64,000 nt of DNA from IMG/VR virus record IMGVR_UViG_3300035394_000193; one strand, given 5' to 3'. Below are positions 1,839 to 63,727 of the stretch, piece after piece; the first letter of the stretch is position 1, and each line of letters begins with the position of its first letter. The position numbers and the translations under genes are program-made. This stretch comes from a virus. Taxonomy: Duplodnaviria; Heunggongvirae; Uroviricota; Caudoviricetes. Under the pieces are notes generated by a model that worked only from the letters and a program-made list of their open reading frames with translations, was not told the origin of the DNA and ran no database searches.

Positions 1839-2732
1839 TTACAACATTTGGAATGATGGAGGATTATCCTTGGATGGACCAAGTATTGGATTCTCCGGGG
1901 TTGAACCATATGGATGCGGCTCAGTAATAACTGTTGATTTTTCAACAGTTTTAGTATTTTCAAATACAATCCTGGCAATCGTTTTAGGAATATCAGTTAT
2001 ATTTGCAATTTTGATACAGTTTTCACCAAGTACTTCTGCCCAACCGTGATATACATCACTTGAATATCCAATAAATAAATGGTAGACATTATACGTTTCT
2101 TTTGCCTTGGCTATTAATTCAGCCGAAGTAAACGTTGATGCTTCGGAACTACCCATGATTTCTTTGATGGCTGAAGCTGGATAGGATTTGTGATTGTTTT
2201 CATCACCAATGGTAAAGAGAAATCCTTTTTGGCCACGTTTCTCAAAACTGTCAAGTACAGTATGATAAGCAGCAAAATAATGAGCCAAACCATATGATTC
2301 GCCTCCATTACCACCGCCGCCACCTTCAGGCCATACACTTGTTAACCAATGATCAAGTAATGCATCACTTGATTCAAATTGAGCAACTTGTAAAGGAGAA
2401 GCATCACATTTGTGATCACCTACTGCTAAGAATAATAATTGAGGGTCTGGAATTCCAGCCTCAATAATAGTACCCATAATAGTAGGAAGCCCCTCTTTAA
2501 TTAATTGATGGGGTATAACACCCATTGAACCGGTAACGTCAAGTGCAAGTACAATTGACACTGTGTTTGGATGATCTGCAGAATCTCTTGATTCACGAAT
2601 TTTCACATCTCTTGGATTCATATCAGGATGAATCTGACGTTGGGTAAAAACTTGTTCAAAAGATTTTGTAGCATAACCTAAGTCTATACTACGACTTGCA
2701 CGATCTACTGTTGAATATTGGCCGTATCCCAT
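1839..2732 (-). CDS. von Willebrand factor A (vWA) domain protein
   Basis: 297 aa; MIDAS-like motif ALDVTGSMG (DxTGS); stop/start overlap (ATGA) with the upstream gene 2732-3100, so it is operonic. Confidence 0.7.
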   Translation of the reverse strand: MGYGQYSTVDRASRSIDLGYATKSFEQVFTQRQIHPDMNPRDVKIRESRDSADHPNTVSIVLALDVTGSMGVIPHQLIKEGLPTIMGTIIEAGIPDPQLLFLAVGDHKCDASPLQVAQFESSDALLDHWLTSVWPEGGGGGNGGESYGLAHYFAAYHTVLDSFEKRGQKGFLFTIGDENNHKSYPASAIKEIMGSSEASTFTSAELIAKAKETYNVYHLFIGYSSDVYHGWAEVLGENCIKIANITDIPKTIARIVFENTKTVEKSTVITEPHPYGSTPENPILGPSKDNPPSFQML

Positions 2733-3100
2733 TAGACCAACTCAATTTCATAAGTATGTCCAAAAAGACTATTGTAACGTTTTTTACATTCATTTAATTG
2801 AATGGTAGTGTTACGAATTTCGTATGCGGCTTTCGCATCAGCTTCAATAAAAGCTTCAGGATCGAAATCAACCATTTTTAATGTGGTTACATTTTCCGGC
2901 GACATATCAAGGGATGCTTCAACATTACGATTTAATCGTTTTAATGTTTGAGCCATATCCTCAATTTTACGTTTGTAAGAAAGTTCAGCATCTTCTAAAA
3001 TAGAAAGAGCACGCCCTTCTTTAATTTGTTTAATGTTTCTGGATAGGGATGCCCATAGGGTTCCATTTTTACCAGCAACTTCTTCAGTAATTTCTGACAT
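2732..3100 (-). CDS. hypothetical protein (helical, coiled-coil-like)
   Basis: 122 aa ORF, charged and helix-favouring composition; first gene downstream of the small-RNA array on the minus strand. Confidence 0.5.
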   Translation of the reverse strand: MSEITEEVAGKNGTLWASLSRNIKQIKEGRALSILEDAELSYKRKIEDMAQTLKRLNRNVEASLDMSPENVTTLKMVDFDPEAFIEADAKAAYEIRNTTIQLNECKKRYNSLFGHTYEIELV

Positions 3101-3884
3101 TGTTTTGATTTTGTTGTTAATAAATAATAATGAATTAAAAATGGAAATTAAACATGTAATTTTGGCGAGCCGTTAACGGGCTCGAGTTTTAGAAGTAACA
3201 TGTTTATAGCCAAGTATATGGACATAGAAAGCAGACAGGTGTGCGGATTTGAACCGTTATCATCCGGTCGAAACCAGAAGAATTGAACCTAGAAGTAACC
3301 TATCTATAGCCATGAAAATGCAAAAGAAATTGGGAATTAAATTAGTAATTTTTACGATTACGAATGTAGAATTAGAAGTAACTAATTTGTAGCCAATTTG
3401 TGTTTTAAAAGAAAATGAAATTGTGTCAGTGGAGTTCAAATTAAGAGTTTGATGCCTTTCGGCGGAAGTAACTAGACACATAGCATTTTAAAAATGCACT
3501 ATCTTTCTAACTTAATTAGGTTGGGGTATGCCCAAAGATAATACACTGTATTGAAAAAATAAACAACTAATGGGAATCGGCACCCAAAATATCTAGACAC
3601 TAAAGTAACGAAATGCTCCAACCAAGTTAAGATTATTAATCTTACCATCGAATCTTCGCGCCGTCACACTATAACGGTTTATGTCTAATATGTCTGCTAG
3701 TACAGTTGTTTATTTTAAGATTGTTGGTTTTTACTTTAAAAACCTAAAGTCAGCCATAAAAAGATTAAGGTTCATGATTTGAAAACCCTGTAAATAACCA
3801 AATCATCTTTAAATAAAGTTCAGGCCGGAACTTTTTCAAGATTTACAGAGTTTATATTGTTGTAGTAATTATGTAAGTAAAATG

Positions 3885-3959
3885 AAGTGTAGGAGCGGGC
3901 TCGAACCGCTGACCTTTCTTACTTTCGTAAGACTGCTCTAACCTCCTGAGCTACCTATA
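3885..3959 (-). ncRNA. tRNA-like RNA with canonical acceptor, D- and T-arms but a GAAA-tetraloop hairpin in place of the anticodon arm
   Basis: Minus-strand sequence GTATAGG-TA-GCTCAGGAGGTTAGAGC-A-G-TCTTAC-GAAA-GTAAGA-AAGGTC-AGCGG-TTCGAGC-CCGCT-CCTACAC. The 7-bp acceptor has one mismatch, the D-loop AGGAGGTTA and the T-loop TTCGAGC are canonical, but the anticodon position is a 6-bp stem closed by a GAAA tetraloop (4- or 6-nt loop, no 7-nt anticodon loop). It lies directly 3' of motif copy 3965-3987. Confidence 0.5.
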
Positions 3960-4120
3960 CGGTCAAGAAGTAACTTACATATAGCCACTAAGTATTTGTT
4001 AAAAGAAAAGGAAATTTCGCACGTAAAGCTTAAACCCAAGATAAGTGCCCTAAGGGCGGAAGTAACGATACGAATAGCCTATTGTAAAATAAAGGAAATT
4101 GTACATCTAATTTTTACGAG

Positions 4121-4176
4121 ACAGCTACTCTAACCAACTGAGCTACAAGCTGGGACTCGAACCCAGGACCCGCTGT
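4121..4176 (-). ncRNA. tRNA elbow-like element: T-arm hairpin and D-arm-like hairpin enclosed by a 5-bp closing stem, with no acceptor or anticodon arm
   Basis: Minus strand ACAGC-GGGTC-CTGGG-TTCGAGT-CCCAG-C-TTGTAGCTCAGTTGGTTAGAGTAGCTGT-CTCG. A canonical T-arm (CTGGG/CCCAG, loop TTCGAGT) precedes a canonical D-arm sequence (TAGCTCAGTTGGTTAGAGTA), and the outer ACAGC/GCTGT can pair. The arm order is inverted relative to a tRNA, so it cannot be a normal tRNA gene. Confidence 0.35.
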
Positions 4177-4415
4177 TTTAGAAGTAAGATATACATAGCC
4201 TTATGTATTTTTATTCAGGTAGTGGACACATACTAATAATAGTAATATGTCGAGGATGAGCCCAACTATTTCTGTTAGCTAAACATTCTTTGATTGATTG
4301 AACAATGTTTGGATTCGGCAATGTTATTGAAACTTCATCATTTTGAAAATTTTGTGCCGTAAAAGTTTCTACAGCATAATCAGGAACTAGTAAAAAGCAA
4401 ACAAAGTAGTTCATT

Positions 4416-5354
4416 TTATTTAGGTTTAGGTATTGCAAAGGACACTCCAATAGAACCTAACAACAATACAAGAACAACTAGTAGAGATGCAATTGTAGGC
4501 ACCTCAATAAGCCAATTTGTATTGATATATTGAGCAGCAGGTAATAACATCTTTACTCCTATAAATAAGAGAACGATTGTAATACCATATTTTAGTGCCC
4601 ATAATTTATCAACGGCACTTGCAAGAACAAAATACAAAGCCCTTAATCCTAACACTGCAAAGATATTCGAGGTATATAGAACAAAGACATTAGTAGTAAC
4701 ACCAAATGCTGCTGGAATGCTATCCACGGCAAACATTATGTCAGTAGTTTCAATCATTAAGACGGTAATGAATAAAGCTGTTGCATATCGTACAATTTTA
4801 GCTCCATCATGTTTCTTAATAAAGAATTTTTTACCATGATATTCAGCAACTACAGGAAAGTGTTTACGAAAGAATAGAACAATTTTATTCTCATGTATGT
4901 CTGGATCTCCGCTATCTTTTGAAAACATTAATTTAAGTGCAGACCAAATTAAGATTAGTGCAAATACATATAGTATTGGATGAAACAAACTAATAAGTGT
5001 TGCTCCTCCAATTATGAATAATGCTCTAAAAATGATTGCACCAAGAATGCCCCAAAATAATGCTATGTGTTGATACTTGGCTGGTGTCGCAAAATATCCG
5101 AAGATCAGATAAATGACAAACAAATTATCTACACTTAATGACTTTTCAATCACATACGCAGTGAACCATAAATTACCAATATCATGCCCATATTCCCAAT
5201 AAACCCAGCCCCCAAACATGCAAGATATGGCTATCCATACTGCACTCCAACCAAGGGCTTCTTTAAACGAAAATGCGTGTTCTTTTTTGTTAACGACCAA
5301 AAGGTCAATTAGCAACAATACAATTACTATTGCTAAGAAAATAATCCACCTCAT
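4416..5354 (-). CDS. terC: TerC family integral membrane protein
   Basis: 312 aa, many predicted TM helices, N-terminus MRWIIFLAIVIVLLLIDLLVV and overall pattern typical of the TerC/Alx family; sits within the Ter-type gene neighbourhood. Confidence 0.75.
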   Translation of the reverse strand: MRWIIFLAIVIVLLLIDLLVVNKKEHAFSFKEALGWSAVWIAISCMFGGWVYWEYGHDIGNLWFTAYVIEKSLSVDNLFVIYLIFGYFATPAKYQHIALFWGILGAIIFRALFIIGGATLISLFHPILYVFALILIWSALKLMFSKDSGDPDIHENKIVLFFRKHFPVVAEYHGKKFFIKKHDGAKIVRYATALFITVLMIETTDIMFAVDSIPAAFGVTTNVFVLYTSNIFAVLGLRALYFVLASAVDKLWALKYGITIVLLFIGVKMLLPAAQYINTNWLIEVPTIASLLVVLVLLLGSIGVSFAIPKPK

Positions 5355-5426
5355 ACTTATCTATTGTTTTTAAAAGTTAAAATAAAAGGATGTATTGCTA
5401 CATCCTTTTACAAATTGATTGTGTAA

Positions 5427-6050
5427 TTAATCCGTTAAACTCGCGATTAGCACTTCAGCAATCGTCATGCCGGAACTTTCAATTTCATCGAAAGTTTTTG
5501 TATCGACAATGTCAAATTTCGCACCATATTTGCTTACGAGATCATCGTCAAGCATGGTTAAAAACCGGGTTGCATTGCGATCATTCCCTACCTGGAGGAA
5601 GCTGATTCCAATTTCATCATCGCGTTCAATTACGCGGGTGGCTTCCACAATTGCTTTTACAACTTCTTCTTGGCTGTCCGGCTCACCGTCAGTTACAACA
5701 ATCAGAATGATTGGCTTTACACCTTTACGGGTGCGATTGGCTGTATAGTTGGTCAATACTTTTTTCAGCATTAAAGCTGTATCAGTACCTCCCATTGGCT
5801 CACTTTCACGGAATATACGGGCAACTTGGCTTGTACCATCTGTTACATTCTCATGCATTACTACTGCACGATTGAATAGGACAACAGTAATACCATCGTC
5901 ATCAGATTCGGCACATTTATTGGCTACGGCAACGGTTGCTTCTTCTGCTTCCTGCCATCTGGTTTTACCATGTGATCCTGGATTTGCCATACTACCACTG
6001 CGGTCTATTGCAACGATAAAGTCATACTTTTTTAAATCTTCACTTGTCAT
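5427..6050 (-). CDS. vWA domain protein (TerY-like)
   Basis: 207 aa; MIDAS motif IVAIDRSGSM (DxSxS) and VVTDGEP (TDG) typical of vWA domains; GC-richer than the surrounding phage genes. Confidence 0.75.
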   Translation of the reverse strand: MTSEDLKKYDFIVAIDRSGSMANPGSHGKTRWQEAEEATVAVANKCAESDDDGITVVLFNRAVVMHENVTDGTSQVARIFRESEPMGGTDTALMLKKVLTNYTANRTRKGVKPIILIVVTDGEPDSQEEVVKAIVEATRVIERDDEIGISFLQVGNDRNATRFLTMLDDDLVSKYGAKFDIVDTKTFDEIESSGMTIAEVLIASLTD

Positions 6051-6068
6051 TTTGTTTTGTTTTAATGA

Positions 6069-6938
6069 TTATTTAAGGAGATAATCTTCTTTAATAAGAA
6101 GGTCTTTGATGAATTGTAAGTTCTTTTGGTAATCGGGAATTAAGTGATAACCATTACCTATTGCTAAATGATATAGATTGGCTAAAACTTTTCTTGCTTG
6201 ATACATTACGAACACAGTAAATGCAAGTTCGTCTTTATGATTTAGAATATACTTGACAACACGTGTGTTTGGTAAAAAGTTTTCATTCTTGATAATTTTA
6301 TCTAAGAACAAAAGATTCTTAACAAAAGCATAGTTTAAGTAATTCTCAACTTTTGGGTCAATGGTAGGATCAGATAATTCAGCAAAGTAAAGGAAAACGT
6401 GATCATTGGTGATGTTATTTTCTTTAAAAGTGCGCTCAATAATTCGTTCATGTGAACCGGTGATTTTGATATCATCCATCATGATTAAAAACTTTCTTTC
6501 TAAGAATGCTTTATCAATTTGGAATCCATCTTTGGAGATTAAGGCAAGGCGTTGTTCAGCGCTTAATTCTCCATAGTCTTCTTTATATGTATTGGTACGA
6601 TGAATTTTACTTAATTCTACGACTGGATAACCTATATCAACAAGATGTTGGTTAAGAAATTGTACGAAGTAATTACTCAACGACCAAGTAGCGGTTGGAA
6701 TGAAACAGTAGGGACTTGACATCACAACAAACTCACGATGATTCTGCTGCAAAATGTTTAAAAATACTTTACTATTAATGAACTTTCTGGCAAGTTCGTA
6801 GCCATATTTCCTGGCAATGTCTTTATCGCCAAACTTAAACTTGGAGTATTCTACAGGTAGAAATCCATACTTTAGTTGATCAAATTCAGTACTGTCAGTT
6901 TTCTTAATGATTTTATGCAGAGCAAATGTATATCTCAT
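6069..6938 (-). CDS. phosphoribosyltransferase (PRTase)-like protein of a Ter-associated biosynthetic module
   Basis: 289 aa; PRPP-binding-type motif FLIMMDDIKITGS (four hydrophobics, DD, x(I/V)TTG-like); overlaps the HAD gene start by 4 nt, so operonic. Confidence 0.6.
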   Translation of the reverse strand: MRYTFALHKIIKKTDSTEFDQLKYGFLPVEYSKFKFGDKDIARKYGYELARKFINSKVFLNILQQNHREFVVMSSPYCFIPTATWSLSNYFVQFLNQHLVDIGYPVVELSKIHRTNTYKEDYGELSAEQRLALISKDGFQIDKAFLERKFLIMMDDIKITGSHERIIERTFKENNITNDHVFLYFAELSDPTIDPKVENYLNYAFVKNLLFLDKIIKNENFLPNTRVVKYILNHKDELAFTVFVMYQARKVLANLYHLAIGNGYHLIPDYQKNLQFIKDLLIKEDYLLK

Positions 6939-7627
6939 TTGTAAACCTCCTTCACATAAGCAACAACATCCATAATTGTTTTATCATTAGAGTTGATGAT
7001 CATAGATTGCATCCCAATTTGAGTAGGACCAAAACCATCAGCTATTGGATTATCTCCAACATGTAGTATCTCTTTAGTTACAAATCGAGAGCGAGTTGTA
7101 ATGTATCCAAAAAATGCGGGGTTTGGTTTTGCTAATTCAATTTCATCAGAGAAGTATTCATCTACAAACATGAAATAAACCTTTTGTTTACGAAGTACTT
7201 CTCGAATGGTTTCACCTAGAATAAAACCTGTATTGGAACCAATAGTTAATACTGGAACTATATCAGATAATATATCAAGAGCCCGAAAAGTATTATCATC
7301 GTATAGACTTGGAGGATTTTCCAAGAATAAAGTTTGAAATTCATCAGAGATACTACTAAGAGTAGAATAATCAATCGGAGTTAATTCTTCATAACCCATC
7401 TCTAATAATAGAAAGGCAATCATTTGAAGGCTGTCAAAATGTAGTCCTTGTATTTCAACCAGACGCGTACATTGAATGTCTATCTTTCTCATCATTTTTG
7501 CTATTTCATATTCAGTTAACTTTTTAGGGTTATACTTTTGAAATAGCATGGCCGCTTTTGCTTTTTTGAAATCAGGATTTGATTTCAGCAACGTAAGCCA
7601 CACGTCAAAGGAAAGGTGGTTAATCAT
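6935..7627 (-). CDS. HAD-superfamily phosphatase-like protein
   Basis: 230 aa; N-terminal LSFDVWLTL resembling HAD motif I (hhhDxDxT, imperfect) and C-terminal HVGDNPIAD matching motif IV (GDxxxD). Confidence 0.55.
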   Translation of the reverse strand: MINHLSFDVWLTLLKSNPDFKKAKAAMLFQKYNPKKLTEYEIAKMMRKIDIQCTRLVEIQGLHFDSLQMIAFLLLEMGYEELTPIDYSTLSSISDEFQTLFLENPPSLYDDNTFRALDILSDIVPVLTIGSNTGFILGETIREVLRKQKVYFMFVDEYFSDEIELAKPNPAFFGYITTRSRFVTKEILHVGDNPIADGFGPTQIGMQSMIINSNDKTIMDVVAYVKEVYK

Positions 7628-7693
7628 GTCTTTTTTAGGATTTAAAAAGGAGTGCCATTACAGCACCCCTTTTGATTTAATTGGTAAAGAGTC

Positions 7694-8269
7694 CTACAAG
7701 AGGGTTTTGATTGTTTCGGCAATCTGGTTAATGTCACCATTGGCACCATTACCCATTGCTTCAAATTTCCACTCGCCGTTGTGACGGTAGAGTTGACCCA
7801 TAATCATACCGGTTTTTCCGGAATAGTCTTCAGACAGATCAAATTTGGCAAGTTCAGCAGCATTCGCAGGATTGAATACCCTCACAAAGGCATTACGAAC
7901 CTGACCAAAATGCTGTCTCCTGGCTTCGGCTTCATAAATGTTTACAATAACAACAATGCGATGTACGCCTGCGGGGACGGCAGTTAAATCAACATTGATT
8001 ACTTCATCGTCGCCATCACCGGCACCGGTAAGATTATCACCCTGATGGGTAACACCAAATTCTTTCAAATGACGGAAGTAAATAACACCCTTATTGCCTT
8101 CGTAAATTGACTTGTCTTCCTTTAAAAGGATAACAGTACTGTCAAGGTCAACAGCGGGTCCATCGGTTTTTACATCCCATCCACAGCCAATGGCTACTTG
8201 GGTAAGTCCTGGGTTTTCTTTGGTAATGTTTACTCTTTCTCCTTTTTCAAGGTTCAATGGATTGTTCAT
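7694..8269 (-). CDS. terD: TerD domain protein (tellurite resistance / stress protein family)
   Basis: 191 aa; the GDNLTGAGDGDDEVINVDL calcium-binding DGDD-type segment and overall pattern are characteristic of TerD/TerE/TerZ. Confidence 0.85.
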   Translation of the reverse strand: MNNPLNLEKGERVNITKENPGLTQVAIGCGWDVKTDGPAVDLDSTVILLKEDKSIYEGNKGVIYFRHLKEFGVTHQGDNLTGAGDGDDEVINVDLTAVPAGVHRIVVIVNIYEAEARRQHFGQVRNAFVRVFNPANAAELAKFDLSEDYSGKTGMIMGQLYRHNGEWKFEAMGNGANGDINQIAETIKTLL

Positions 8270-8756: not shown

Positions 8757-8886
8757 GGGGGTTTAACACCCCGCGGTTTGGCGAAGGGATCGCCTTCTGG
8801 TACAAAGTAATAAGGAATTGATTCAGTGGCTTTTTCAGCGACACCCCTTCTATTTTATGTACATAGAAGTAACTCAATCATAGCCT
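8757..8886 (-). promoter_or_regulatory. motif copy plus two further GC hairpins forming a structured leader upstream of gene 8376-8690
   Basis: Motif copy at 8865-8886 (AGGCTATGATTGAGTTACTTCT on the minus strand), then hairpins GGCGAAGGGATCGCC (8780-8794) and GGGGGTTTAACACCCC (8757-8772), and then the terminator hairpin. Confidence 0.35.
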
Positions 8887-8911: not shown

Positions 8912-11023
8912 TTATATACCCATATATTCCATGGTCTTTACATACGAAGATGCAAAGTCATCGAATAGGAAGTGAGTTTCTGCAGTTTCTTTCGATACAA
9001 CACGACCACGTGCCTCGACATGCCATTGTAGCAAGTCATATACACTGACCTTTGGTAAAGATATGTACGGTTTCAACGCATCGAAAAATTCCGACGATTG
9101 ACCGTAAACAAAACTTGAAAATCCATCATAATCCAGGTCCAAATAAATTGATTCGCGAGCAACTAAATCGTATGCTGCAACCAATACCATATTTCCAGCA
9201 CTTTTTAGGAGCATAGAGTTTTGAATGGTATCTGGTTTCCAGGTTTTGTTCGATTCAGGAAATTGTCGTTCCATTACACCAGCAACACATTCTTTCAAAT
9301 CAGAAAGTTTTCCTCCTTGAAAGTTATGTATTACCATAATGAAATAATTGTACCCGCGTCTTACAGCTTCGTCAACCACAATATCAACATATTCTGCACA
9401 AGCGCCTTGACGATGACGAACATCACCAGAGTAACATCCAAGTCCAGGTACATTTTGATTTCCATTGTATCCAAATGACATACTGCCTTTTGGACCAATT
9501 AAAAATCCGTGTAAATCCAAATCTTGGTCACCATGTTGATCATACCAATGAATAAAAGGTCTAATAACCTTTTTACCTTCACCAAATGGTGTTCTTTGTC
9601 CACGTATTACGGGAACTAAACTATCATTCAAGCTACGCATGTTTGTTGGTAATGGAATCTTTTTCAATTCTTCATCAATCCAACAATCGCCGAGTGCAGG
9701 CAAATCAGCAAACTTACCTTTAATGATATCAAAGATAGTAGACTGTATAGCATCAATCTTTTCAGCTGCAATTGCAGGTAGTGAGGGAAGATTAGTATGT
9801 TTCCTTGCACCTTTAATCATAACCTTGCGATTATTTGAAGGTAGTCTTCTATCTTCAAAATGACTAAATACCTCAAACAATACTTTATTTGAAGCTTTGG
9901 CTCCAATTTTAGCAAGAAGATTGAGAATCAATTGCAAACTACTTTTATTCGCAGTACGAACAAGAAAGTCTAACCTACGTAGAAATTCACCAGGACGTTC
10001 AGCAAGCTTTGTAATCCCAGTGTTAGCGGAAATACTAAAAGCTTTAGTTACTTCGCCGTACCATGATACAACTTTCTCATTTCTAATTTGGTCAAATGCT
10101 TTATAAGCACGAGGAAACAATGCTTTATATTCACCAGGATGTAAGATTTCTCCAATCCTAACCCAACGTTGGTCTTTTAATTTCATTTCACGAACATCCA
10201 AACTAGATTTCTCCAAGAGTTCTAAAATGAATTTACGTTCAGCTCGTTTGAATTTCTTGAACTTGAATTTCTCTCTTTCAGGATTTGCTACAGTAACATA
10301 ACTTCTACGATAGCCACTTTGTTGTCTTACTGTTTTACGAGGTACGGCAGGAAGAGATACATCTCCGCCTGATAGATATACGATGATTCTCAATACATCG
10401 GTCGATGTAAGAGATGGCAATTGAACTGTACCAAGACCACGGCCGGTAGTAATCAATTTGCCAATCATTGTACATAAGTTTTCTTTAAAAGGGATACTTT
10501 CGGGGAAAGTTAGGAATGGATATTCTGCAACAAACCACTCAAGAACTTTTAAATCAGCAGGAGTCAATGATGTACCTGCTTTTGCAAGACTTGTAAAGAT
10601 ATTAGCAAAATCCTGTTCAGTGCCAAGGGTAATAGGTCGGTATTTTACTTGCTCGAATGCTGTACTTTTCGTACGAGTCCATTCGTTAGCAGTGAAAGAT
10701 CCTCCAGACCAATAACCAAGAAGTTGATTAAACCATAATTGTTGTTCCGACATTTCAATTACTTGTGTCGGAAATCCTTTGTATATGGGTTGATAGTCAC
10801 GTTGACCACCGGTCATTTCTTTTAAGTAGTCGAGAACTTCATTATAGAAGTCTTTAATGTTTGCGGCATCAGTATATCCCAATGCTTCTAAAGCATCTGA
10901 ATCTAACATATAGCCAAACCTCATTAGTTCAGCTTGGCACATCATAGCCAAATTGCGGTTATCAATTCCGTTATTCGGAACAACCACAAGACCTTTTTGG
11001 AAAGCGATTACATTTTTATTCAT
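8912..11023 (-). CDS. large hypothetical protein (703 aa), first gene of the Ter-type operon
   Basis: Long uninterrupted ORF with no Walker A motif and no domain I can name from sequence; followed by the motif and hairpin leader. Confidence 0.6.
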   Translation of the reverse strand: MNKNVIAFQKGLVVVPNNGIDNRNLAMMCQAELMRFGYMLDSDALEALGYTDAANIKDFYNEVLDYLKEMTGGQRDYQPIYKGFPTQVIEMSEQQLWFNQLLGYWSGGSFTANEWTRTKSTAFEQVKYRPITLGTEQDFANIFTSLAKAGTSLTPADLKVLEWFVAEYPFLTFPESIPFKENLCTMIGKLITTGRGLGTVQLPSLTSTDVLRIIVYLSGGDVSLPAVPRKTVRQQSGYRRSYVTVANPEREKFKFKKFKRAERKFILELLEKSSLDVREMKLKDQRWVRIGEILHPGEYKALFPRAYKAFDQIRNEKVVSWYGEVTKAFSISANTGITKLAERPGEFLRRLDFLVRTANKSSLQLILNLLAKIGAKASNKVLFEVFSHFEDRRLPSNNRKVMIKGARKHTNLPSLPAIAAEKIDAIQSTIFDIIKGKFADLPALGDCWIDEELKKIPLPTNMRSLNDSLVPVIRGQRTPFGEGKKVIRPFIHWYDQHGDQDLDLHGFLIGPKGSMSFGYNGNQNVPGLGCYSGDVRHRQGACAEYVDIVVDEAVRRGYNYFIMVIHNFQGGKLSDLKECVAGVMERQFPESNKTWKPDTIQNSMLLKSAGNMVLVAAYDLVARESIYLDLDYDGFSSFVYGQSSEFFDALKPYISLPKVSVYDLLQWHVEARGRVVSKETAETHFLFDDFASSYVKTMEYMGI

Positions 11024-17632: not shown

Positions 17633-17944
17633 TTAAATAGCTTCCTTAATAGTTTTTCCTCGTCTAGCAAGTTACCTTATGCTTCCGATTCTTCAGTAGG
17701 CTATTTTAGGGACATTGTTTACCACCGACACTTTGGTCCAGTAGCCCCTCTGGCTTTAGCCGTTAACCGGCAGATTCAATAAATTTATTACTTTTATTGA
17801 ATCATTTTCCTGGCATCACCTATCTATCGCTAGCATAGAAATGGCGGCTTTCACAGCCTACAGAAAATACGAAAAATCATCACATAATTAGTCTCTACCT
17901 AACCTTGTTAACGTTATTCAAAGAAGAACACTGATGATTTAATG

Positions 17945-18019
17945 GAGTTCCTACGGGACTCGAACCCGTGCCTCGACCCGCTGAATGGGTCCGCTCTACC
18001 AACTGAGACGTAAAGAACT
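17945..18019 (-). tRNA. suppressor tRNA, anticodon UCA (reads UGA)
   Basis: Minus strand AGTTCTT-TA-CGTCTCAGTTGGTAGAGCG-GACCC-ATTCAGC-GGGTC-GAGGC-ACGGG-TTCGAGT-CCCGT-AGGAACT-C. Anticodon stem GACCC/GGGTC closes the 7-nt loop A-T-TCA-G-C, so positions 34-36 are TCA. T-arm and D-loop are canonical; the D-stem has one mismatch; the variable loop is short (not Sec-like). Confidence 0.7.
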
Positions 18020-19632: not shown

Positions 19633-20356
19633 TATTTCTAGGTTTTTATAGGTTTGACCTGATATTATTATATCAACGCACTAGACTTAACAATGTTTAT
19701 ACTCTTCTAGTAGAGTCGAACAAATAAGGCAATCAAAGGATTACTCCCTTGACTGCCTATTCATTCATTTCATAAAGCCTGAGTTTGGTACAACTTTACA
19801 ATAACAGTGTTGCTTCTTTGAAGCGGCTCCATAGTGTCCCACCATTACCGATTGATTTTTTGACAAACCAATAAACTTTCCTCGTAATATACTCTTTGAG
19901 ACGGCTAACCTCATACCCTTTATTACGTCTTCATTGCATCACGATATTATGCAACTAAATCTGCTATGCTGATTAGTATTCGGAAAATCTTTTCACACTT
20001 TTGCCATATAGGATTTAGACAATCAAACATGTGTATTTTTAAAGTCTTAGACTTACAGACTCAATCATAAAAATAAGCCACGCATCCGAAGCTTTGGTGC
20101 TCCGGAAATCCCAATCGCCAATATCATTAATTTGTAACAATGATTCAAACCCTACAGACTTAACCTGCTCAATCCTGGGCTGTGACAGTTATTTTTGAAT
20201 CATTATTACATTTTAAATAACCCAATAAATCCGTATATCCTTCTCAACGGACTCCACCTCATTCGGATAAGCTCTAGCTTAGAGGAATAGAATGGGTTTT
20301 AATAAAAGATTCACCCTCACCACTATTACTAGTGTATATTGGGTGAACCTAGATCA

Positions 20357-25631: not shown

Positions 25632-25703
25632 CGGTTCTTAGTGTAATGGCAGCACATTAGTCTTCAAAACTAATAGGTGAGGGTTCGAGTCCTTCAGAGC
25701 CGG
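25632..25703 (+). tRNA. suppressor tRNA, anticodon UCA, tRNA-Trp-like
   Basis: CGGTTCT-TA-GTGT-AATGGCA-GCAC-A-TTAGT-CTTCAAA-ACTAA-TAGGT-GAGGG-TTCGAGT-CCTTC-AGAGCCG-G. The 7-bp acceptor has one G-U pair; the anticodon loop C-T-TCA-A-A puts TCA at 34-36 with A37, i.e. the tRNA-Trp loop CUCCAAA with C35 changed to U; T-loop TTCGAGT. Confidence 0.75.
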
Positions 25704-25707
25704 CAAA

Positions 25708-36964: not shown

Positions 36965-39184
36965 ATGAATCAAAGAAATAGTGAAAAAGAACAAGATATA
37001 ATTAATAATATAAATAGAGCTATTAATGAGTTGGTGTATGAAAAGACCCAACTCATTAAAGCCTATAATTATTATCATGGAAAAAGAGATCCAGAGCAAT
37101 TTAGGCATTTAGAAGAAAACTATGGAATTGGAACTCCTACTTCTGTTGAATTTGTACCTTTGGTTCGTAAGCACGTTGATGTATTAATTGGAGAATACTT
37201 ATCAATTCCATTACTTCCGAAAATATCTTGCAAGGATAAATCAACTTTATCTAATATACATAGAGATAAACAACTCCAAATAAATAATGAAATAGCTACT
37301 GAGTTAAAAAAGCATTTAAATAATTCTATTTATAATGCAATTTATAAAACAGAAGGACAAGAACCTCAAAAACCTTTACAAGATAAAGAAATCGAGTTAT
37401 CATTACAAAATCTACAAGAATCAATTGAAAGAAATTTTATTTCAGATTATGAAATAGCAGCACAAAATATTGTAGATTATGCAACACAAGCTAGACATAT
37501 TGATTTTTTAAATCAAAGAAAAACTCTTGCAATTGATTTATTAGCAACCGGTACATGTTATTATAAAGTATTACCTTCTCAATCAAAAGAGAATATATCT
37601 TTAAAAATTCTTAATCCTGTAAATACTTTTATTGATCGAAATCCTGAAAGTGTTTATTTAAATAAATCTATGCGAAGTGTATGTAGAGAATATTTAACTA
37701 AAGATCAAATTCTTGCTAGATATGGTGAAGTTTTAACTAAAGATGATTTAGACGAATTAGAAAGTTTAGAAGATTTTAGTATTGATAGTTCAACTACAAC
37801 ATATCTTAGAAGTTATGATACAGTAACAGGTAATACAATGTCAGATGGTATTCTTGGAGGATTTGAAGTAACACCACTTCTTCCATTTGAAAGAAATACT
37901 TCAAAATATTTTAGAGTATATCCTGTTTATGAAGTTGAGTGACTTAAAACAGAAAAGGAAGATGGCACATTTGTTACAAACAGATACTCAGGAATAAGAA
38001 TTGGAACACATATTTATATACCAACAGGTAAAGTAGAAGATGTTCCTCGAAATCATGATTCTCCAAATGAATGTACATTATCAGTTAATGGTATATTCTA
38101 TGGCGATAGAAATGGAGATCCTTATTCTTTAATGCTTGCAACTGCAAATTTACAGGATAAATATGATATGCTTTGTTTCTATAGAGATAATGTAATCTCT
38201 GAATCAGGTACAGTTGGAGATTGAATTGATATAGCGTATCTTCCTAAAGTATTAGGTTCCGATTTAACAGAAAGATTAATGAAATGAAAAGCCTATAAAA
38301 AACAAGGATTAGCTATCATTGATTCTTCACAAGAAGGTTTATCACCAATGAATACAACATTTGGAGGTTTTGATGATACTATTAAATTGCAGACTATTCA
38401 AGCAATTGATTTAGCTATTCAAAGAGTAGAAGAAGCTTGTTCAACAATAACTGGTGTATTCAGAGAAAAGCTTGGAGGCATAGAACAAAGAGATGCAGTA
38501 AGTAATGTACAAGTTGGAGTTAGGCAATCATCTTATATTACTAAACAATTTTATCAAACCCTTGATTTAATGACAAGAGAAATGTTATTAGATATTCTTA
38601 ATCTTACTAAAACCATATATAAAAAAGGTATTACAGGAACATTGATTCTTGGAGAAAGATTAAATAAAGTATTTACCGCTCTCCCTGAACATTATACTGC
38701 AACTGATTATGATATTCATATTACAGATAGTGCAGATATAATTAAAGAACAAGAAACCATTAAACAAATTACAATGGAATTTATTAAAGGTGGAATTGTT
38801 GATCCTGAAGTTATATTAGAAGCTATTACAGCAACTGGTCTCACAAAAATGAAAGCTGATGTTGGGATTGCAATGACTAAGAAAAGAGCAGAAAATAATC
38901 AAGTTGGACAATTAAATCAACAATTACAAGAGCTTGATAAACAATTAAAACAAGCTCAATCAGAAGCTCAGAAATTACAGAAAGAAGTTGAGAGATTAAA
39001 CTCTGAAAAAATACAAATTGAGGCTGGAAGATTAGCATTTGACAAAGAACTTGGTTGGTACACAGCTAAAAATAAGGTTATGTTTGATGAAGCTAAAATA
39101 GAATGAGAAAAGAAAAGGGTACAGTTAGAAGCTGCACAACTTTTAGATGATAATCATAATAACGACGAAATAAAAAATAATTAA
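36965..39184 (+). CDS. portal protein candidate, recoded
   Basis: 739 aa formed by ORF fragments 36965-37942 and 38348-39106 in the same frame with several TGA; size, position downstream of TerL, and a C-terminal coiled coil are typical of portal proteins; no named motif. Confidence 0.5.
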
Positions 39185-57208: not shown

Positions 57209-59432
57209 TACTTTTGAAGGTGGGGTTAATTACGACCTTAATCCTTTAACAACTCCGGCTAATATACTTACAGATGCTATAAATAGTGGATTTATCACTT
57301 TTAATGGAGATGAACTAGCTTTACAAACAGATGCAGGTAATACTACAATAAAATATTTAGAAACTGATGTACATTTAACACAAGGATTTTATCCTTTAGG
57401 AATTAAAGAATATGGCGGAGTATTGTATATTATATCAGGAAAACACCCTACTAATACAACCTCTTTATATGATACAGAAGTACCTTATGCAGTAGGAGAT
57501 ATTGTTTATAATACAATTTTAGATGTTGATTATTATTTTGAATGTTTAACTGCAGGAGGAAATAATCTTCCAACTTCTACAATAAGTGATGAAAATTGGT
57601 TATATATAGGAATTGAAAAAGATTTTATTAATAAATATGGAAGTGTAGAATTTGGAAGTTATCCAAGTCCTGAAATAATTAATGCTGATATATTTGATAC
57701 CTCAGTAGATTTTGATTTAGTAAACGAAATTGCTACTCCTGGAGAAGAATTTAAATTAGAATTATACAAACCTAAAATAATAAATAGATCTATATTTAGA
57801 GCCGGTGTTTATGTTAATTTTCATAAAGTTATAGGAAGTACATTAGTTACTGATAATATTTCTTATGATGCGTTTACATACGATGTCACAAATAAAGTAG
57901 CTACTAAGAATCCAGCAAGTTATAAAAATATTTATAAAGTTAAATTATATCATCAATTAACAAATGGATATATAGATTTAACAGACAATGTTTGGGAACA
58001 ATATGCTAAATATGTTGGTCAAAATGATGCAGAAGATTTAAACATGACTGGACCTCCACGATTTTGATTTAATGATAATAATTTTAATTACCATTGTCCT
58101 CATAATTTTAAAGGTAAATTAGTTACGTCTGTTGAATTAGAAGAATTAGATGTATTTAAATTATCTTCAATAAGAGTTGATTATACCGATCCTAATTATG
58201 AAGTTAATTTTGGTTTAACATATACAGAAACTGCACAATGAAATCAAGGAATTTCTCCGAATACTTGTACAATTTATTATACTTCTGACGGCAGTGAACC
58301 TAATACACAAGAAGTTGTTTTAACTACAACAGTATTAACTAATCAAGATGTAACATCATTTATAATAAGTTTTGATGATACTATTCCTGGAACTTACAAT
58401 GGAAAAACTATGAGATATAAAATTATTCCTGATTTTTATTTTGATGGAGTAGAAATTGATAAAGTTGATATTCCACAACAATTTCTTGATTTACATACAA
58501 TTGTAGGAAGTCAATTAATTACAAGTGAAATGGCAGGAGTTAAATTTATTACTCAACCTGCTACTAATTTATGTGAAGTAGGAAATACAGGATATAGAAT
58601 TGCTGATTATCTTGATTTAGTTAATAACAATGATGAAAATCTTGATAGTAATTTAGATCCTGCAGGAACTGACGTTTATCAATTTTATAATGATAATATT
58701 ACTCCTAATGTAGGAGGAAATTATTTAGGAAGTTATACAATAGGATTAACTGGTTTGGCTGAATTAGCCTCTGAAGGTCCAATAATGTTAAACTCTAATA
58801 TTCGAGATTATGTTATTAGCTTATTAGAAGCAACTCTTGTTAAAGTTTATGATGTTACTTGTACAACTGTAATTTTAACTGTAAATGTTAATGCTACTTA
58901 TGGAGCAACAATACCAATTACTGTAATGCAAGGAGCTACTTCAATAGTAGGAACTGCAACAGGACCTACTACCTTTACATTCCCTATACTTCCAGGAGTA
59001 AATTACACTATTAGTCCTAGTTCGTCTATGAATGGAATAATTGATGCTTATGATTATATAGGTAATACTTTAGTTGATGAAGAAATTACTTATGGATTTG
59101 TAATTGATTTACATATGATTGGAAATCCTATAGTACCTGGTGGTACAGATTATGAAGATTTCTTTACTGTAAATGTTCCAATAGGTTCTTTAAATATTAG
59201 TTTTACTAATTTTACAAATGAACAAACTAATGTAACATTTTCCCCAACTACAGAAAATGTTAATATAGTTGGAGGAGAAAGTGATGTTGTATTTAGTTAT
59301 GATTCAACTTTAGGAGATCCAACTTATTTAGTAACGTTTTCATCTGCTGCAGTTCAAACAACTTATATTAATATAGCAGATTCTGTAGTACTTATAGGTG
59401 ATGCAATACTCTTAGAAACTTATACACTTTAA
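57189..59432 (+). CDS. large structural protein, recoded (TGA at 58065 and 58239)
   Basis: 747 aa from ORF fragments 57189 and 58410 in the same frame; Thr/Asn/Val-rich beta-type composition. Confidence 0.5.
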
Positions 59433-59443
59433 TAATTATACTG

Positions 59444-62400
59444 ATGCCTTTACCCTTAATAACAATACATTTGGATAATGCAATGTACGGATTCCCTCTT
59501 GAAGGGAATCTCGTATATCAGTATAATCCATTCCAAAACTTACAAAATCCTAATCCAAGTGAAGATAATTCATCAGGATTAGTTGCATTAAGTATAAATA
59601 GTCAAAAAGCAGGAATTAATATTACTGAACCAGTTACAATAGAAACTGAAGTATCTTATGATGATTCTATAAATTTGATTATAACAGATCAAGTAAATCC
59701 TCCTAAAATAGTTAATTCAAGATTTTACCAAACTAATACTATGACTTATTCAGTTGCAGATAGAAAAGGTAATCTTGATACTAATATTTATTCAGAAGAG
59801 AATTTTAAAATAGAAGCTGGATTAGTAAAATCAATTAGAACTATTTCTACAATAGACTTCTTAGGAATAAAAGATGGAGGTCTTATGAAAATAGGAAACT
59901 ATACATTCTATTTTAGATTAGCAGATTCTGATGGAAATGAATCAGATTTTATTGCTGAATCAGGAAAAGTAGTTTGTCATATAGGTTCAATTAATACTCC
60001 AAGAGCTATTCGTGGTGGACAACAAGATGAAATTAGTTATAAACTTATTAAATTTAAAATTAATAATTTAGACTTAGCTTATGATTATGTAAATGTTTAT
60101 TATACAAGATCAACAGGTGATGGAGATCAAGAAATAGTAAAAGCTTATAAAATCAATGATAAGTTTAAAATAACTAATAGAGATATTGATTTAACTATTA
60201 CAGGATACGAAAACCACGAAGAAATATCAATAGATGATATTAATGTTCAATATGCTAATTTTGATTCAGTTAAAACTTTACCTAATTGTCAAAATATTAC
60301 TTTTGCAGGTAATGTTACAAATGATTATGAACTATTTAAAACTCTTGAAAAATATAGTTTACATATTACTCCAAAAGTAGTATACGATACAGAAGGAATT
60401 GGCAATCTTGATAACTTATATAATGAAGCTTATTTAAATAATGGATATGAATATTTTAATGCTAAAAATATTTATTATAAATTAGGATATTGAGATGAAG
60501 AAATATATAGAGTTGGAGTAGTTTATATTCTTAATAATTATACTTTATCTCCTGTATTTAATATTAGAGGTATTAAATCTCTTGATACTGCTACTATGTT
60601 TACTTCATTTGCATTAAATGCTCCAATTAATTATGGAGAAGATTATATCTTTGAAACAACTGATGATCCATTAAATCCGGAAAATGCTAAAGGAGTATTC
60701 AAGATTGATTGTAACACATATAATATGTTCAATCGAACAGATACTATAAAACCTTTAGGATTACAATTCTTATTTAATGATAATGTAATTCCTGGAGATG
60801 GAAAGTTTATAGATGGATTACAAGATTTAACTAAAGGATTTTTCTTTGTTAGACAGAAACGTATTCCTACAATATTAGCTCAAGGAGTTGGTATAGGAAC
60901 AAGTAAGAAAGCTAACATCCCTTTACTTAAAGGTACTAAATCTAGTAAGTCTTTAAGTTATAATTATTTTGCAGAATCATTTATAAAACCAAGTGGAGCA
61001 AGTCAAATATTAGGTGGCGATTTATTTAAAGTAGAAAATGCAGATGTATGGCAAAATGCTTTACTATGTCCTGAGGCCTGTGTTAAAACTACAACTTTTA
61101 ATACATTCTTTAATTCTTCTGAATATTTCCTAAAACAATTTAAATATAGACCTACATCTGATGTTTTTAATAACTATGAATCGGATAGAGATAGTTTTGC
61201 ACTTAAAAATTTACAGTCAAATGTAACTAATTTACAATCATTTAATTCGGAATTAACTTTAGTTGAACCAGGAATTGAATTAATTAGAAATAATACCTAT
61301 GATTTCTGTTCTAAAGCAGGTGATGCAATCATTGCTTATAAGCATGTTGATCCAAATCTTGGTAATTATGAAGATTTAACTACTTCAAGTACAACTGATT
61401 GAAATGGAACTACTTCTAAAGTAAGAGGTGAATTTAATACCTTTATAGGATGTAGTACTAACAATATTACTGCAGGATTATATTATAATATATTTCAAAA
61501 AGATTATAATTTTGAAAATTATTGAAAAGAATATTTCTTATTAAGATATAATGATGCAAGTCCTTTCTTACCTATAAGTGATAGAACAAGCTGAACTGAT
61601 ATAAATATTGATGGAACAGAATATTCTTCGGATTACATATTCAGAGGAGACTGTTATATAAATACTTATACACATAGAATGCATTGGAATTTCATAGATA
61701 CTGAACTTCCTACTAATAAAAGAATTGTTGACCCTTATACATGGGCAAAACATTTCAAAATTAAAAGTAAAGCATCGGTTCAAGTAATTGATAATAATGG
61801 AAATCCACAAGAGTTAGCTACTGCAGTTGCCTTAACTTACCATAAACTTCTACTTTTATTTACATATAAAAATGTATTTGAGCCTGAGTGAAAAGACGAT
61901 CTTGGTACTGGAACAGATACAGCTTCATATACAGGTATATTAGAATCCGATCAAAAGAAGTTTAAAAAATATTCAGAAAGAAATGGATTATTTGGAGCTG
62001 AAAAAATTAACAAACCTGATATAAATGCAGTAGGTTTAGGACATTGGGCAACATTTAAAATTTGCAGTAATGTAAATTTAGCAATGAGAGATTTAGATTT
62101 CTCACGACCAATGGAAGAAGCTCTACATAGACAAAAAAGAGGATTCTATCCTTTACAATCTATGGATAAAAACAATCACTTACCTGAATCAAATGTAATT
62201 AACAATGGAATAAGTAAAACATTAGGAGATAAATACTATTTTGAAATTCCTGATGTACCATTCATTAAAACAAATTTTGCCACACGTATTTTCTATTCTA
62301 ATGTATTACAAAACTCTATATTTACTAATGGAAATAGAGTGTTTGAATCTAAAAATTATTTAGATTATACAAGAGAATATGGAAGTTTAGTAAAATTAGT

Positions 62401-63727
62401 AGAATGATATGGAAAACTAATTGCTGTTATGGAACATGGAGTTTTACTAATTCCTGTTAATGAAAGAGCAATGATGACTAATGCACAAGGTGAGAATGTT
62501 TACATTAATACTGCAACTGTACTTCCTCAAAATCCGAAAGTACTATCTAATACATTTGGAAGTTTATGACCAGAATCCATTACTAAAACATCAAGATTTA
62601 TTTATGGAATTGATTCTGTTGGTAAAAAAATATGAAGAACTGACGGAGAAACTTTTGAAAATATATCTGATTTAAAAGTTCAAAAGTTTTTAAATGATAA
62701 TATTAATTTACGAGAATCTGATAAAGATAGAAGTGTTAATGTTAATTTTATAAAAACACATTATAATGCTTTTAAACATGATATTATGTTTGTGTTTAGA
62801 TATAATGATAAAGTATGAAATTTATGTTGAAATGAGCTTTTACAAAAGTGAACAACTCAGTATACATGAATTCCGGAGTTTTCAGAAAATATTAATAATC
62901 TTTTTTATACCTTTGCAAATCAAACTAAACATACTTCCGCAAGTAATAAATTGTATAAGCATGGGTTCGCTGGAGTAGTAGAAGAAGCCGGAAATATTCT
63001 TCCTGCTTACTGATATGATGAACAACATCCATTTGAATATGAATTTGTTGTAGCTACTATTCCAGGAGTACAAAAAATCTTTAATAATTTAAAGATTATA
63101 TCTAACTTAGTTGAACCCGATTCATTCTATTACGAAATAGTTGGTGAAGGATTTGATTGATTCAGTTACAAAGACTTAATTGTTAAATTAAATGATGTAA
63201 CTTTAGCAACAATTGATGGGGTAACATTAACAACTTACACAACAGTAGCTACTGAAGACAATGTTAAGTTAAGATATAAAGAATATTTAACTGATAAAAC
63301 TGATGTTAAAAAACTTCCTTATATTTTCTTACAATCATTTGATGTTAATAATCCATTATCATTCTTTAAAACAAGAACTAAACCAACTCCAGGAACAGCT
63401 TATAATATGTCTACTTTAAGAGATTTAACTATTAGAGAACATAACAAAACTAAAGAAAAATTAGTAGATAGTTATCAAATGGGTATGGACATAAAGAAGT
63501 ATGGAAGAATGAAAGGTAATATGCAATATTTAGAAGATGCGTGAGATGTACAAATACAGCCAATAAGTTTCCCTTATTGTTATATTAGTGCTTCTACATT
63601 AATGTTTCTTCCTAATAAGGAAATGAGAATAAGGGACAAATATATTAAAATAAGAGTCAAATATGATGGTAGCAAATACGCAATAGTAAATGCTATTCGT
63701 TCTAATTTTGCGGTAAGTTTTGCATAA
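59444..63727 (+). CDS. very large structural/tail protein (1427 aa) with about 20 in-frame TGA codons
   Basis: ORF fragments 59444, 60596, 61679 and 62084 share one frame; 62402-63727 was checked codon by codon with no TAA/TAG and TGA at 62405, 62567, 62633, 62816, 62828, 62849, 62867, 63011, 63158, 63542; stop TAA 63725-63727. Confidence 0.55.

Follow-up and report, generated by a model that had tools for sequence, protein, structure and literature searches.

A phage tRNA-like cloverleaf with a capped anticodon arm, enclosed by a covarying handle helix, as part of a probable Y-RNA-like scaffold

Introduction

Y RNAs and their partner protein Ro60 have been found in animals, in some bacteria and in a few phages. 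The Y RNAs of bacteria and phages mimic tRNA, and Y RNAs are encoded beside Ro60 genes (Chen et al. 2014, PMC4201824). The present work concerns unit 3, an RNA of about 125 nucleotides (nt) predicted on the minus strand of a 64,000-nt stretch of a Caudoviricetes virus (IMG/VR record IMGVR_UViG_3300035394_000193; hereafter the window). Unit 3 carries in its middle a tRNA-like cloverleaf in which a GAAA-capped hairpin takes the place of the anticodon arm. It is probably a Y-RNA-like scaffold, with the topology of Deinococcus radiodurans Yrn1, of a divergent phage ribonucleoprotein (RNP) of the Ro60-like type.

Two topologies of tRNA-mimicking Y RNAs have been described. The YrlA RNAs are permuted and have a capped acceptor stem, whereas Yrn1 of D. 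radiodurans is oriented the other way round and carries an 'anticodon arm' of 5 base pairs (bp) and a 6-nt loop (PMC4201824). Like unit 3, Yrn1, whose partner is Rsr (Ro60), combines a long stem that pairs the RNA ends with a tRNA-like module in non-permuted order, and places a stem-loop without a 7-nt loop at the anticodon position, between a D-like and a T-like arm. Unit 3 differs in that its cloverleaf is complete, with D and T arms of canonical form and a variable loop, whereas Yrn1 lacks a clear D arm and a variable arm. The closing-stem sequences also differ, and the probable partner in the window resembles Ro60 in fold only and carries a TerD domain; the likeness is one of architecture. 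The YrlA family (Rfam RF02553) shares tRNA mimicry in a Y-RNA scaffold beside a Ro60-type gene, and a neighbouring RNA of the window, unit 1, has exactly the YrlA topology. Unit 3, on the other hand, is not permuted, its acceptor end and not its anticodon stem joins the closing stem, and it has no YrlA match. The sequence of its closing element, here called the handle, is unrelated to the YrlA stem consensus.

One phage Ro60 is described as binding phage-encoded Y-like RNAs and as forming a complex with the host PNPase, and a canonical Ro-binding motif is also described (PMC12135203). Thermus phage phiLo encodes a recognisable Ro60 with TROVE and vWA domains and two Y-like RNAs, Yrl1 and Yrl2, with a CGAA motif (PMC12135203). 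In contrast, the protein of the window gives no sequence-level TROVE signal and has TerD in place of vWA, the arrays hold 7-10 RNAs each, and the handle is different. The TerD domain is a proposed binder of nucleotide derivatives. The mascRNA-type tRNA-like small RNAs resemble unit 3 in that a cloverleaf with a degenerate, non-decoding anticodon arm lies in a longer transcript. They are eukaryotic, are defined by their release by RNase P and RNase Z, and have neither a closing helix nor a Ro-type partner. Ro60/Y-RNA-type RNPs with tRNA mimicry are already known, and what appears to be new is the handle, the arrays and the putative Ro-like/TerD partner, of which no description was found in the literature searched, whose coverage was incomplete.

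The cloverleaf and its capped anticodon arm

The cloverleaf occupies positions 3886..3960 of the minus strand, as located by ARAGORN, the Rfam tRNA model and stem parsing. Its sequence is GUAUAGG-UA-GCUC-AGGAGGUUA-GAGC-A-G-UCUUAC-GAAA-GUAAGA-A-AGGUC-AGCGG-UUCGAGC-CCGCU-CCUACAC-U. The acceptor stem pairs 3960-3954 with 3893-3887, the D arm covers 3951-3935, the T arm 3910-3894, and the discriminator is U at 3886. The hairpin at the anticodon position (3917..3932) consists of UCUUAC (3932-3927), GAAA (3926-3923) and GUAAGA (3922-3917), forming a 6-bp stem that is read directly from the letters and is present in all predicted folds. A G.A juxtaposition flanks it. The elbow features of a tRNA are in place: U8, A14, GG in the D loop, UUCGA in the T loop and a 5-nt variable loop. 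The element therefore has the acceptor, D and T arms and the elbow nucleotides of a canonical tRNA, and lacks the 5-bp stem and 7-nt loop with U33 and a purine at position 37.

ARAGORN calls the cloverleaf tRNA-??? with a 2-base 'anticodon'. The Rfam tRNA model (RF00005) matches it at 37.4 bits (E 6e-6; gathering score 29) in a local search of the neighbourhood with permissive filters; a gathering run over the whole window with default filters did not pick it up. The original prediction, made from the sequence, had described a tRNA-like RNA with exactly these D and T arms, stem and loop, and both programs recognise a tRNA shape. The element had been placed at 3885-3959, one base away from its position at 3960-3886 on the minus strand. 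All arms other than the anticodon arm had been described as canonical, which is correct for the D and T arms; the acceptor stem contains a single A3.C70 mismatch that had gone unmentioned, as had the G.A juxtaposition beside the hairpin.

A normal 7-nt loop hidden by an assembly or sequencing indel, the error that could have undone the prediction, is very unlikely because the sequence is identical in three assemblies: two others, from other samples (ENA ERZ27248456 and JGI 3300028549), are 100% identical across a 1.3-kb region. The 5' strand of the arm keeps the register of a normal tRNA, and the 3' strand is one base longer. This leaves a single alternative reading, in which a 5-bp stem carries the 8-nt loop ACGAAAGU, with C at position 33 and thus no U33.

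The handle helix and the complete unit

The whole of unit 3 spans 3862..3986 on the minus strand, as delimited by the minimum free energy (MFE) fold, a covariance model and covariation, with ends (3986 and 3862) predicted from the sequence. In order, it comprises GGCUA, the 5' helix strand, UACUUC, a 6-nt leader, the cloverleaf, a 7-nt trailer, the 3' helix strand and an AUUACU tail. The 5' module of the handle (3967..3986), recognised by motif scans, holds GGCUA at 3986-3982, the helix strand UAUGUAAGU at 3981-3973 and the conserved UACUUC at 3972-3967. The 3' module (3864..3878) holds the helix strand ACUUACAUA at 3878-3870 and the tail AUUACU at 3869-3864, which is AAUUUCC in most units. 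In the MFE fold a 9-bp helix closes around the cloverleaf, and the closing helix is formed in the folds of every orthologue. The covariance model R1 scores unit 3 at 125.4 bits. The cloverleaf thus looks like the conserved middle of a longer RNA and not like a free decoy tRNA.

The motif GGCTAT-N6/7-(G)TTACTTC occurs in 8 copies on the minus strand of the window, 7 of them in a 1.1-kb gene-free stretch (3192-4200) and one at 8885. Its variable core is complementary to the bases directly 5' of the AATTTCC-like tail that ends each unit. Thus, UAUGUAAGU pairs with ACUUACAUA ahead of AUUACU in unit 3, GUAUAU with AUGUAC ahead of AAUUUCC in unit 1, and UCGUAU with GUGCGA ahead of AAUUUCC in unit 2. 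Partner and tail are present together in 47 units, with 40 distinct helix sequences, from 16 loci, whereas shuffled partners (n=200) give a mean of 4.0 and a maximum of 11. Since the variable core covaries with its downstream partner, the motif is an RNA structure and forms half of a closing helix. The handle, as read from the sequences, has the form 5' GGCUA-[9-bp helix]-UACUUC ... [helix]-AUUUCC 3' and would close all eight units of the window. The motif copy noticed upstream of the cloverleaf in the original prediction does exist (GGCTATATGTAAGTTACTTC, 3986-3967); it is one strand of this helix with its flanks and not the separate motif of a free-standing gene.

Judged from its sequence, the unit has the architecture of a Y RNA, which is 80-130 nt long with paired ends and a variable module: at about 125 nt, it has a 9-bp covarying helix and invariant GGCUA, UACUUC and AUUUCC elements. 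The anatomy is regarded as Y-RNA-type because the stem-paired termini and conserved region go together with a variable module, paralogous RNAs and a position beside a probable Ro60-type gene. The handle has no family in Rfam, whose tRNA and YrlA models are the only ones to match, each to a part of a unit. The motif was also considered as a sigma-70 promoter or a terminator and rejected, as the consensus scan was empty and the covariation points to RNA structure. A general flank of phage tRNA genes was likewise rejected, as the ordinary tRNAs that the model picks up in the same phages have no handle. The hairpin stem of unit 3 (UCUUAC/GUAAGA) and its own handle helix (AUGUAAG/CUUACAU, 3981-3973 / 3878-3870) share the 5-mers CUUAC and GUAAG. 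An alternative pairing between hairpin and handle may be possible in the window and in its closest relative; orthologues with other stems have no such match, so it may be due to chance.

Orthologues and covariation

Relatives were sought by several routes, and the loci found are designated by L numbers. A bare-motif scan of IMG/VR returned many single chance matches and clusters of 3-6 motifs in about 12 contigs, and loci fetched through a neighbouring gene for a 703-amino-acid (aa) protein gave further arrays of 4-10 units. The unit-specific handle pattern had one true relative in the JGI metagenomes, L130, the other three matches being chance. Blastn and tblastn against INPHARED found no near-identical or related cultured phages, and neither a degenerate pattern for the capped arm nor TerC as a synteny probe retrieved anything from IMG/VR.

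The architecture of unit 3 is also present in L130, L124, L138, L127, L139 and L135, of which L130, L124 and L138 share its handle core. A covariance model built on this set scores the 7 orthologues (window included) at 95-127 bits and everything else at 55 bits or less. In the alignment of the seven, 94.4% of the cells are paired, 18 of 31 pairs are changed on both sides and five helices are kept; the observed values are not attained in any of 500 shuffles, and the slid structures have 30-44% of their cells paired. As the model fitted the alignment to the tested structure, the result is somewhat biased in its favour. The search for conservation in related phages that had been suggested with the prediction thus yielded six further distinct orthologues that keep the fold, in phages whose proteins neighbouring the arrays are only 65-70% identical.

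The arm at the anticodon position follows the same pattern. In the window and L130 it is UCUUAC/GAAA/GUAAGA (stem, loop, stem), in L124 CUUUUGU/GUGA/ACAAGAG, in L138 CUCUUGU/GAGUA/ACAAGAG, in L127 CCUCAU/GUGAAA/GUGAGG, in L139 CCUUGG/UAACC/CCAAGG and in L135 CCUCAU/UUU/AUGGGG. All six pairs of the stem are changed on both sides, with 94.9% of cells paired, whereas the loops measure 3-6 nt and have no conserved sequence. The claim that the molecule cannot decode is borne out by this capped helix with its unconserved loops. In L147 (a contig of a Puia sp. metagenome-assembled genome) the architecture and the handle core of L127 are shared, but the arm is a normal CUGGA-UUCAUAA-UCCAG (anticodon CAU) and the end is ACCA. 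L144 also has a handle-flanked tRNA-like RNA with a 7-nt loop. The anticodon loop is regarded as unconstrained because the loops vary among the orthologues and the counterparts in L147 and L144 keep 7-nt loops. Selection thus keeps the helices and the elbow, with the anticodon loop free to persist or to collapse. Capped and intact arms together reveal the selected part of the tRNA shape, namely the elbow and acceptor helix and not the anticodon loop.

Two further observations concern single orthologues. The L130 unit (777-897), from the closest relative, has a handle and a UCUUAC-GAAA-GUAAGA hairpin identical to those of the window, together with different acceptor, D and T arms; its T loop is non-canonical (CGCGACU) and ARAGORN makes no tRNA call. 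In L127 (15525-15647) and L147 (6054-6176), A stands at T-loop position 56 and the D loop apparently has U for the second G, so that a compensatory U19-A56 would stand in for the G19-C56 elbow pair.

A neighbouring gene of probable Ro60-like/TerD type

The conserved neighbour of the RNA arrays is the gene for the 703-aa protein, at 8912..11023 on the minus strand of the window. Its product is predicted to combine a helical Ro60/TROVE-like ring domain with a C-terminal TerD-like domain. No Pfam domain was found in the protein. It belongs to phrog_33734 and has more than 565 relatives. A match to NCBIfam NF041916 ('MXAN_6230/SCO0854 family RING domain-containing protein') covers the non-RING part with an E value of 5e-70 and scores below the family cut-off. 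Comparison of structures, by one method with one model, makes it probably Ro60-like. A Pfam scan of 30 open reading frames (ORFs) of the window revealed no gene for TROVE, RtcB or a ligase; in the late region, beyond about 38 kb, part of the sequence was scanned, with PHROGs instead of Pfam.

All IMG/VR loci of sufficient length that the RNA motif alone retrieved have a gene of the 703-aa type about 30-300 nt from the array, upstream or downstream. The linkage persists down to 40% protein identity for arrays, and to 24-30% for two loci that hold one motif copy each. This linkage gives independent support for the connection with a Ro60-like RNP. The handle sequence is kept even in a Tepidisphaeraceae genome of 69% guanine-cytosine (GC) content, where GGCUAU GGGGUCG GUUACUUC ... 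CGGCCCC GAUUUCC lies directly upstream of the gene. L148, a Tepidisphaeraceae contig of 1.04 Mb with a GC content of 69%, has an array of 17 tRNA genes that is directly followed by the Ro-like gene and a single handle unit (501-2079 and 2412-4603), and the locus may be an integrated element.

In the window, a Ter operon (4416-8269, minus strand) separates the 703-aa gene and the unit next to it, unit 0, from the main array. It comprises TerD (7694-8269), HAD (6935-7627), PRTase (6069-6938), vWA (5427-6050) and TerC (4416-5354). The same insertion is found in L139 and is absent from L124, L134 and L138.

Proposed role and alternative explanations

By analogy with the known Ro60 systems, the adjacent Ro60-like/TerD protein would dock at the conserved handle. 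From there the L-shaped tRNA mimic would project and engage a tRNA-binding partner; candidates are an exoribonuclease, for example PNPase, and the enzymes that process or modify tRNA. The anticodon loop would have no role and would have collapsed in this lineage to a stable GNRA-capped helix, in place of a dispensable loop. A far wider proposal, speculative and on the whole rather unlikely, is that the arrays constitute a modular RNA toolkit of an undescribed Ro-like/TerD RNP. One invariant handle would load many cargos onto the protein, which, through TerD and the Ter operon, would link a small-molecule signal to tRNA capture, repair or destruction in phage-host conflict. The cargos would then include three tRNA-mimic topologies, mini tRNAs and short hairpins, with the capped-anticodon mimic as one bait or adaptor among several.

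Several observations count against assigning unit 3 to a Ro60-like RNP. The covariation set is small (n=7 distinct orthologues). The Ro60 likeness of the 703-aa protein comes from one structural method and one model, and neither Foldseek nor any of the sequence methods finds similarity to Ro60. The canonical Ro-binding features, a bulged helix and a CGAA-type motif, do not occur in the handle GGCUAU-N6-GUUACUUC / N6'-AAUUUCC, and the consensus scan found neither a sigma-70 promoter nor an intrinsic terminator adjoining the units. The main array of the window lies 4.7 kb from the 703-aa gene, with the Ter operon between them. No YrlA or handle RNAs were found near the distant homologues of the 703-aa protein in a faecal contig and in cultured phages (WXIN, XacN1 and Weasels2, none with a YrlA match nearby). 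Finally, GCCA follows the acceptor stem in 4 of the 7 orthologues, so that RNase P and RNase Z might still set free a tRNA-like RNA.

Such a release is the core of the alternative that survives best, which is nevertheless unlikely. The cloverleaf would be excised by RNase P and RNase Z, CCA would be added, and the free 75-nt RNA would titrate or inhibit tRNA-binding host factors such as defence nucleases and modification enzymes. An acceptor stem with a leader and a trailer is a plausible substrate for these enzymes, RNase P or the CCA-adding enzyme may recognise unit 3, and the ACCA end of L147 adds to the GCCA ends of the orthologues. For YrlA, cleavage and the addition of CCA, with no charging, are reported. 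In the window, however, the 3' flank of the acceptor stem is UUCA and not CCA, and processing would destroy the conserved, covarying flank helix. The handle also closes cargos without any tRNA shape (22 of 54 units). The original prediction had offered a decoy for anticodon nucleases among its possible roles, which is a weak proposal, as these enzymes recognise an anticodon loop that is missing here and unconstrained among the orthologues. For a free-standing decoy or inhibitor in general, the genomic context points to a Ro60-like RNP instead.

The handle could also be an RNA-processing signal, with a role like that of the archaeal bulge-helix-bulge, at which an endonuclease and a ligase excise, circularise or re-join the cargos, split and permuted tRNAs included. 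The arrays do hold permuted tRNA-like units, as well as tRNAs with inverted handle modules in the anticodon region (L128, L134, L135, L129, L092, L013 and L147). This explanation is decidedly unlikely: removal of the inserts restores no conserved 7-nt anticodon loop, unit 1 of the window has no acceptor stem and could never mature into a tRNA, the ORFs scanned include no endonuclease or ligase gene, and the conserved neighbour is, by its modelled structure, a putative Ro-like RNA binder.

The preserved helices and the variable loop bear on two further readings, a decaying pseudogene and a conserved decoder (the 8-nt-loop reading included), both of which are therefore set aside. That unit 3 is a decaying tRNA pseudogene, with a motif that acts only as a DNA-level phage promoter or terminator, is very improbable. 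The 5' side of the arm does keep the tRNA register, with one extra base 3', and the counterpart in L147 retains a normal CAU arm. Nevertheless, compensatory changes preserve all five helices in phages as divergent as those described above, and the motif core covaries with its downstream partner, unlike a pure DNA signal. It is scarcely credible that the cloverleaf is a tRNA that decodes a 4-base codon in the manner of frameshift suppressors, through an anticodon loop expanded to 8 nt (ACGAAAGU), for although opening A32-U38' and C33-G37' would give the 5-bp stem and 8-nt loop, and the phage already recodes TGA and has two suppressor tRNAs, position 33 is C and not U, both closing pairs are Watson-Crick, the orthologue loops are of 3-6 nt with unrelated sequences, and the window copy is without CCA and enclosed by the handle.

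Unit 3 as a Y-RNA-like scaffold would make this lineage a rich natural experiment, with a large protein family that is invisible to TROVE sequence models and 7-10 RNAs sharing one handle per array. A single array can hold YrlA-type permuted, Yrn1-type non-permuted and minimal T-arm mimics. The case also carries a warning for annotation, since a phage tRNA call labelled 'undetermined' or pseudo can be part of a longer structured RNA.

Other units of the arrays

The remaining seven units of the window are all encoded on the minus strand. Unit 1 (4092..4200) folds as a handle around a circularly permuted tRNA-like module, with the T arm 5' of the D arm and the anticodon stem joined to the handle. 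It has no acceptor stem, and its match to Rfam YrlA, of 35.5 bits (E 1e-5), falls short of the gathering score (69). Unit 2 (4010..4079) encloses a short hairpin cargo with its UCGUAU/GUGCGA handle and is kept in L130 and L138. The others were recognised by motif scan and covariance-model match. Unit 4 (3414..3485), with a UGCUAU variant of the handle, and unit 5 (3330..3394) have short cargos, and unit 7 (3141..3211) has a hairpin cargo. Unit 6 (3224..3311) carries a mini tRNA-like cargo without a D arm, made of a UUCG-capped hairpin and the T arm GGUUCAAAUCC, with orthologues in L124, L130, L138 and L135. Unit 0 (8811..8885) lies directly downstream of the Ro60-like gene, a position that is also filled in L127, L134, L135, L138 and L139. 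Between units 3 and 4, a hairpin-like segment without a handle, UAUCUUUGGGCAUACCCCAA...AGAAAGAUA (3486-3553, minus strand), is also found after the orthologous unit in L124. The 300 nt that precede this segment, at about 3560-3861, are common only to L130.

Across the loci, the 54 handle-closed units divide by cargo into 12 permuted YrlA-type tRNA mimics, about 10 T-arm-only cargos, 22 short hairpins and 8 units flagged as non-permuted. The last group includes 6 complete cloverleaves, and the L130 unit, which the crude classifier called 'D-arm only', is the seventh.

Many arrays end with a tRNA or tRNA-like gene whose anticodon region is split by the handle modules in inverted order: 3' module, short spacer, 5' module. 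Such genes lie at L128 14130-14357, L134 6624-6865, L135 16609-16840, L129 9443-9239 (minus strand), L092 4032-4230, L013 502-280 (minus strand) and L147 about 6180-6330. At first sight they resemble split tRNA genes. An intron-like reading was rejected, as removal of the insert leaves no conserved anticodon loop, and MFE folding of one of these RNAs was uninformative. From their sequences, they may be a third circular permutation of one design, with the handle as a hairpin on the anticodon stem; they would fit equally well with the handle as a processing signal.

Related phages also have free-standing tRNA-like genes without a handle and with 6- or 8-nt 'anticodon' loops (L135 1920-1994 and 2030-2104; L139 1552-1622; L124 21468-21543; L127 14687-14762), for which ARAGORN reports tRNA-??? 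with 2- or 4-base anticodons. Transfer-messenger RNA genes occur at L124 15803-16130, L127 20499-20831 and L143 808-1108, L143 being a distant relative from human faeces.

Other features of the window

In the late/structural region of the window (34000-64000), TGA is apparently a sense codon, as stop-to-stop ORF coverage rises from 0.81 to 0.99 when TGA is not counted as a stop. Long ORFs with TGA read through include the portal gene (36965-39184, 739 aa) and an ORF of 1451 aa at 59372-63727. Two tRNAs have the anticodon UCA ('SeC' by ARAGORN), at 17944-18019 on the minus strand and 25632-25704 on the plus strand. A Pistol self-cleaving ribozyme is matched at 19653-19716 on the minus strand with 38.8 bits, above the gathering score of 34.5.
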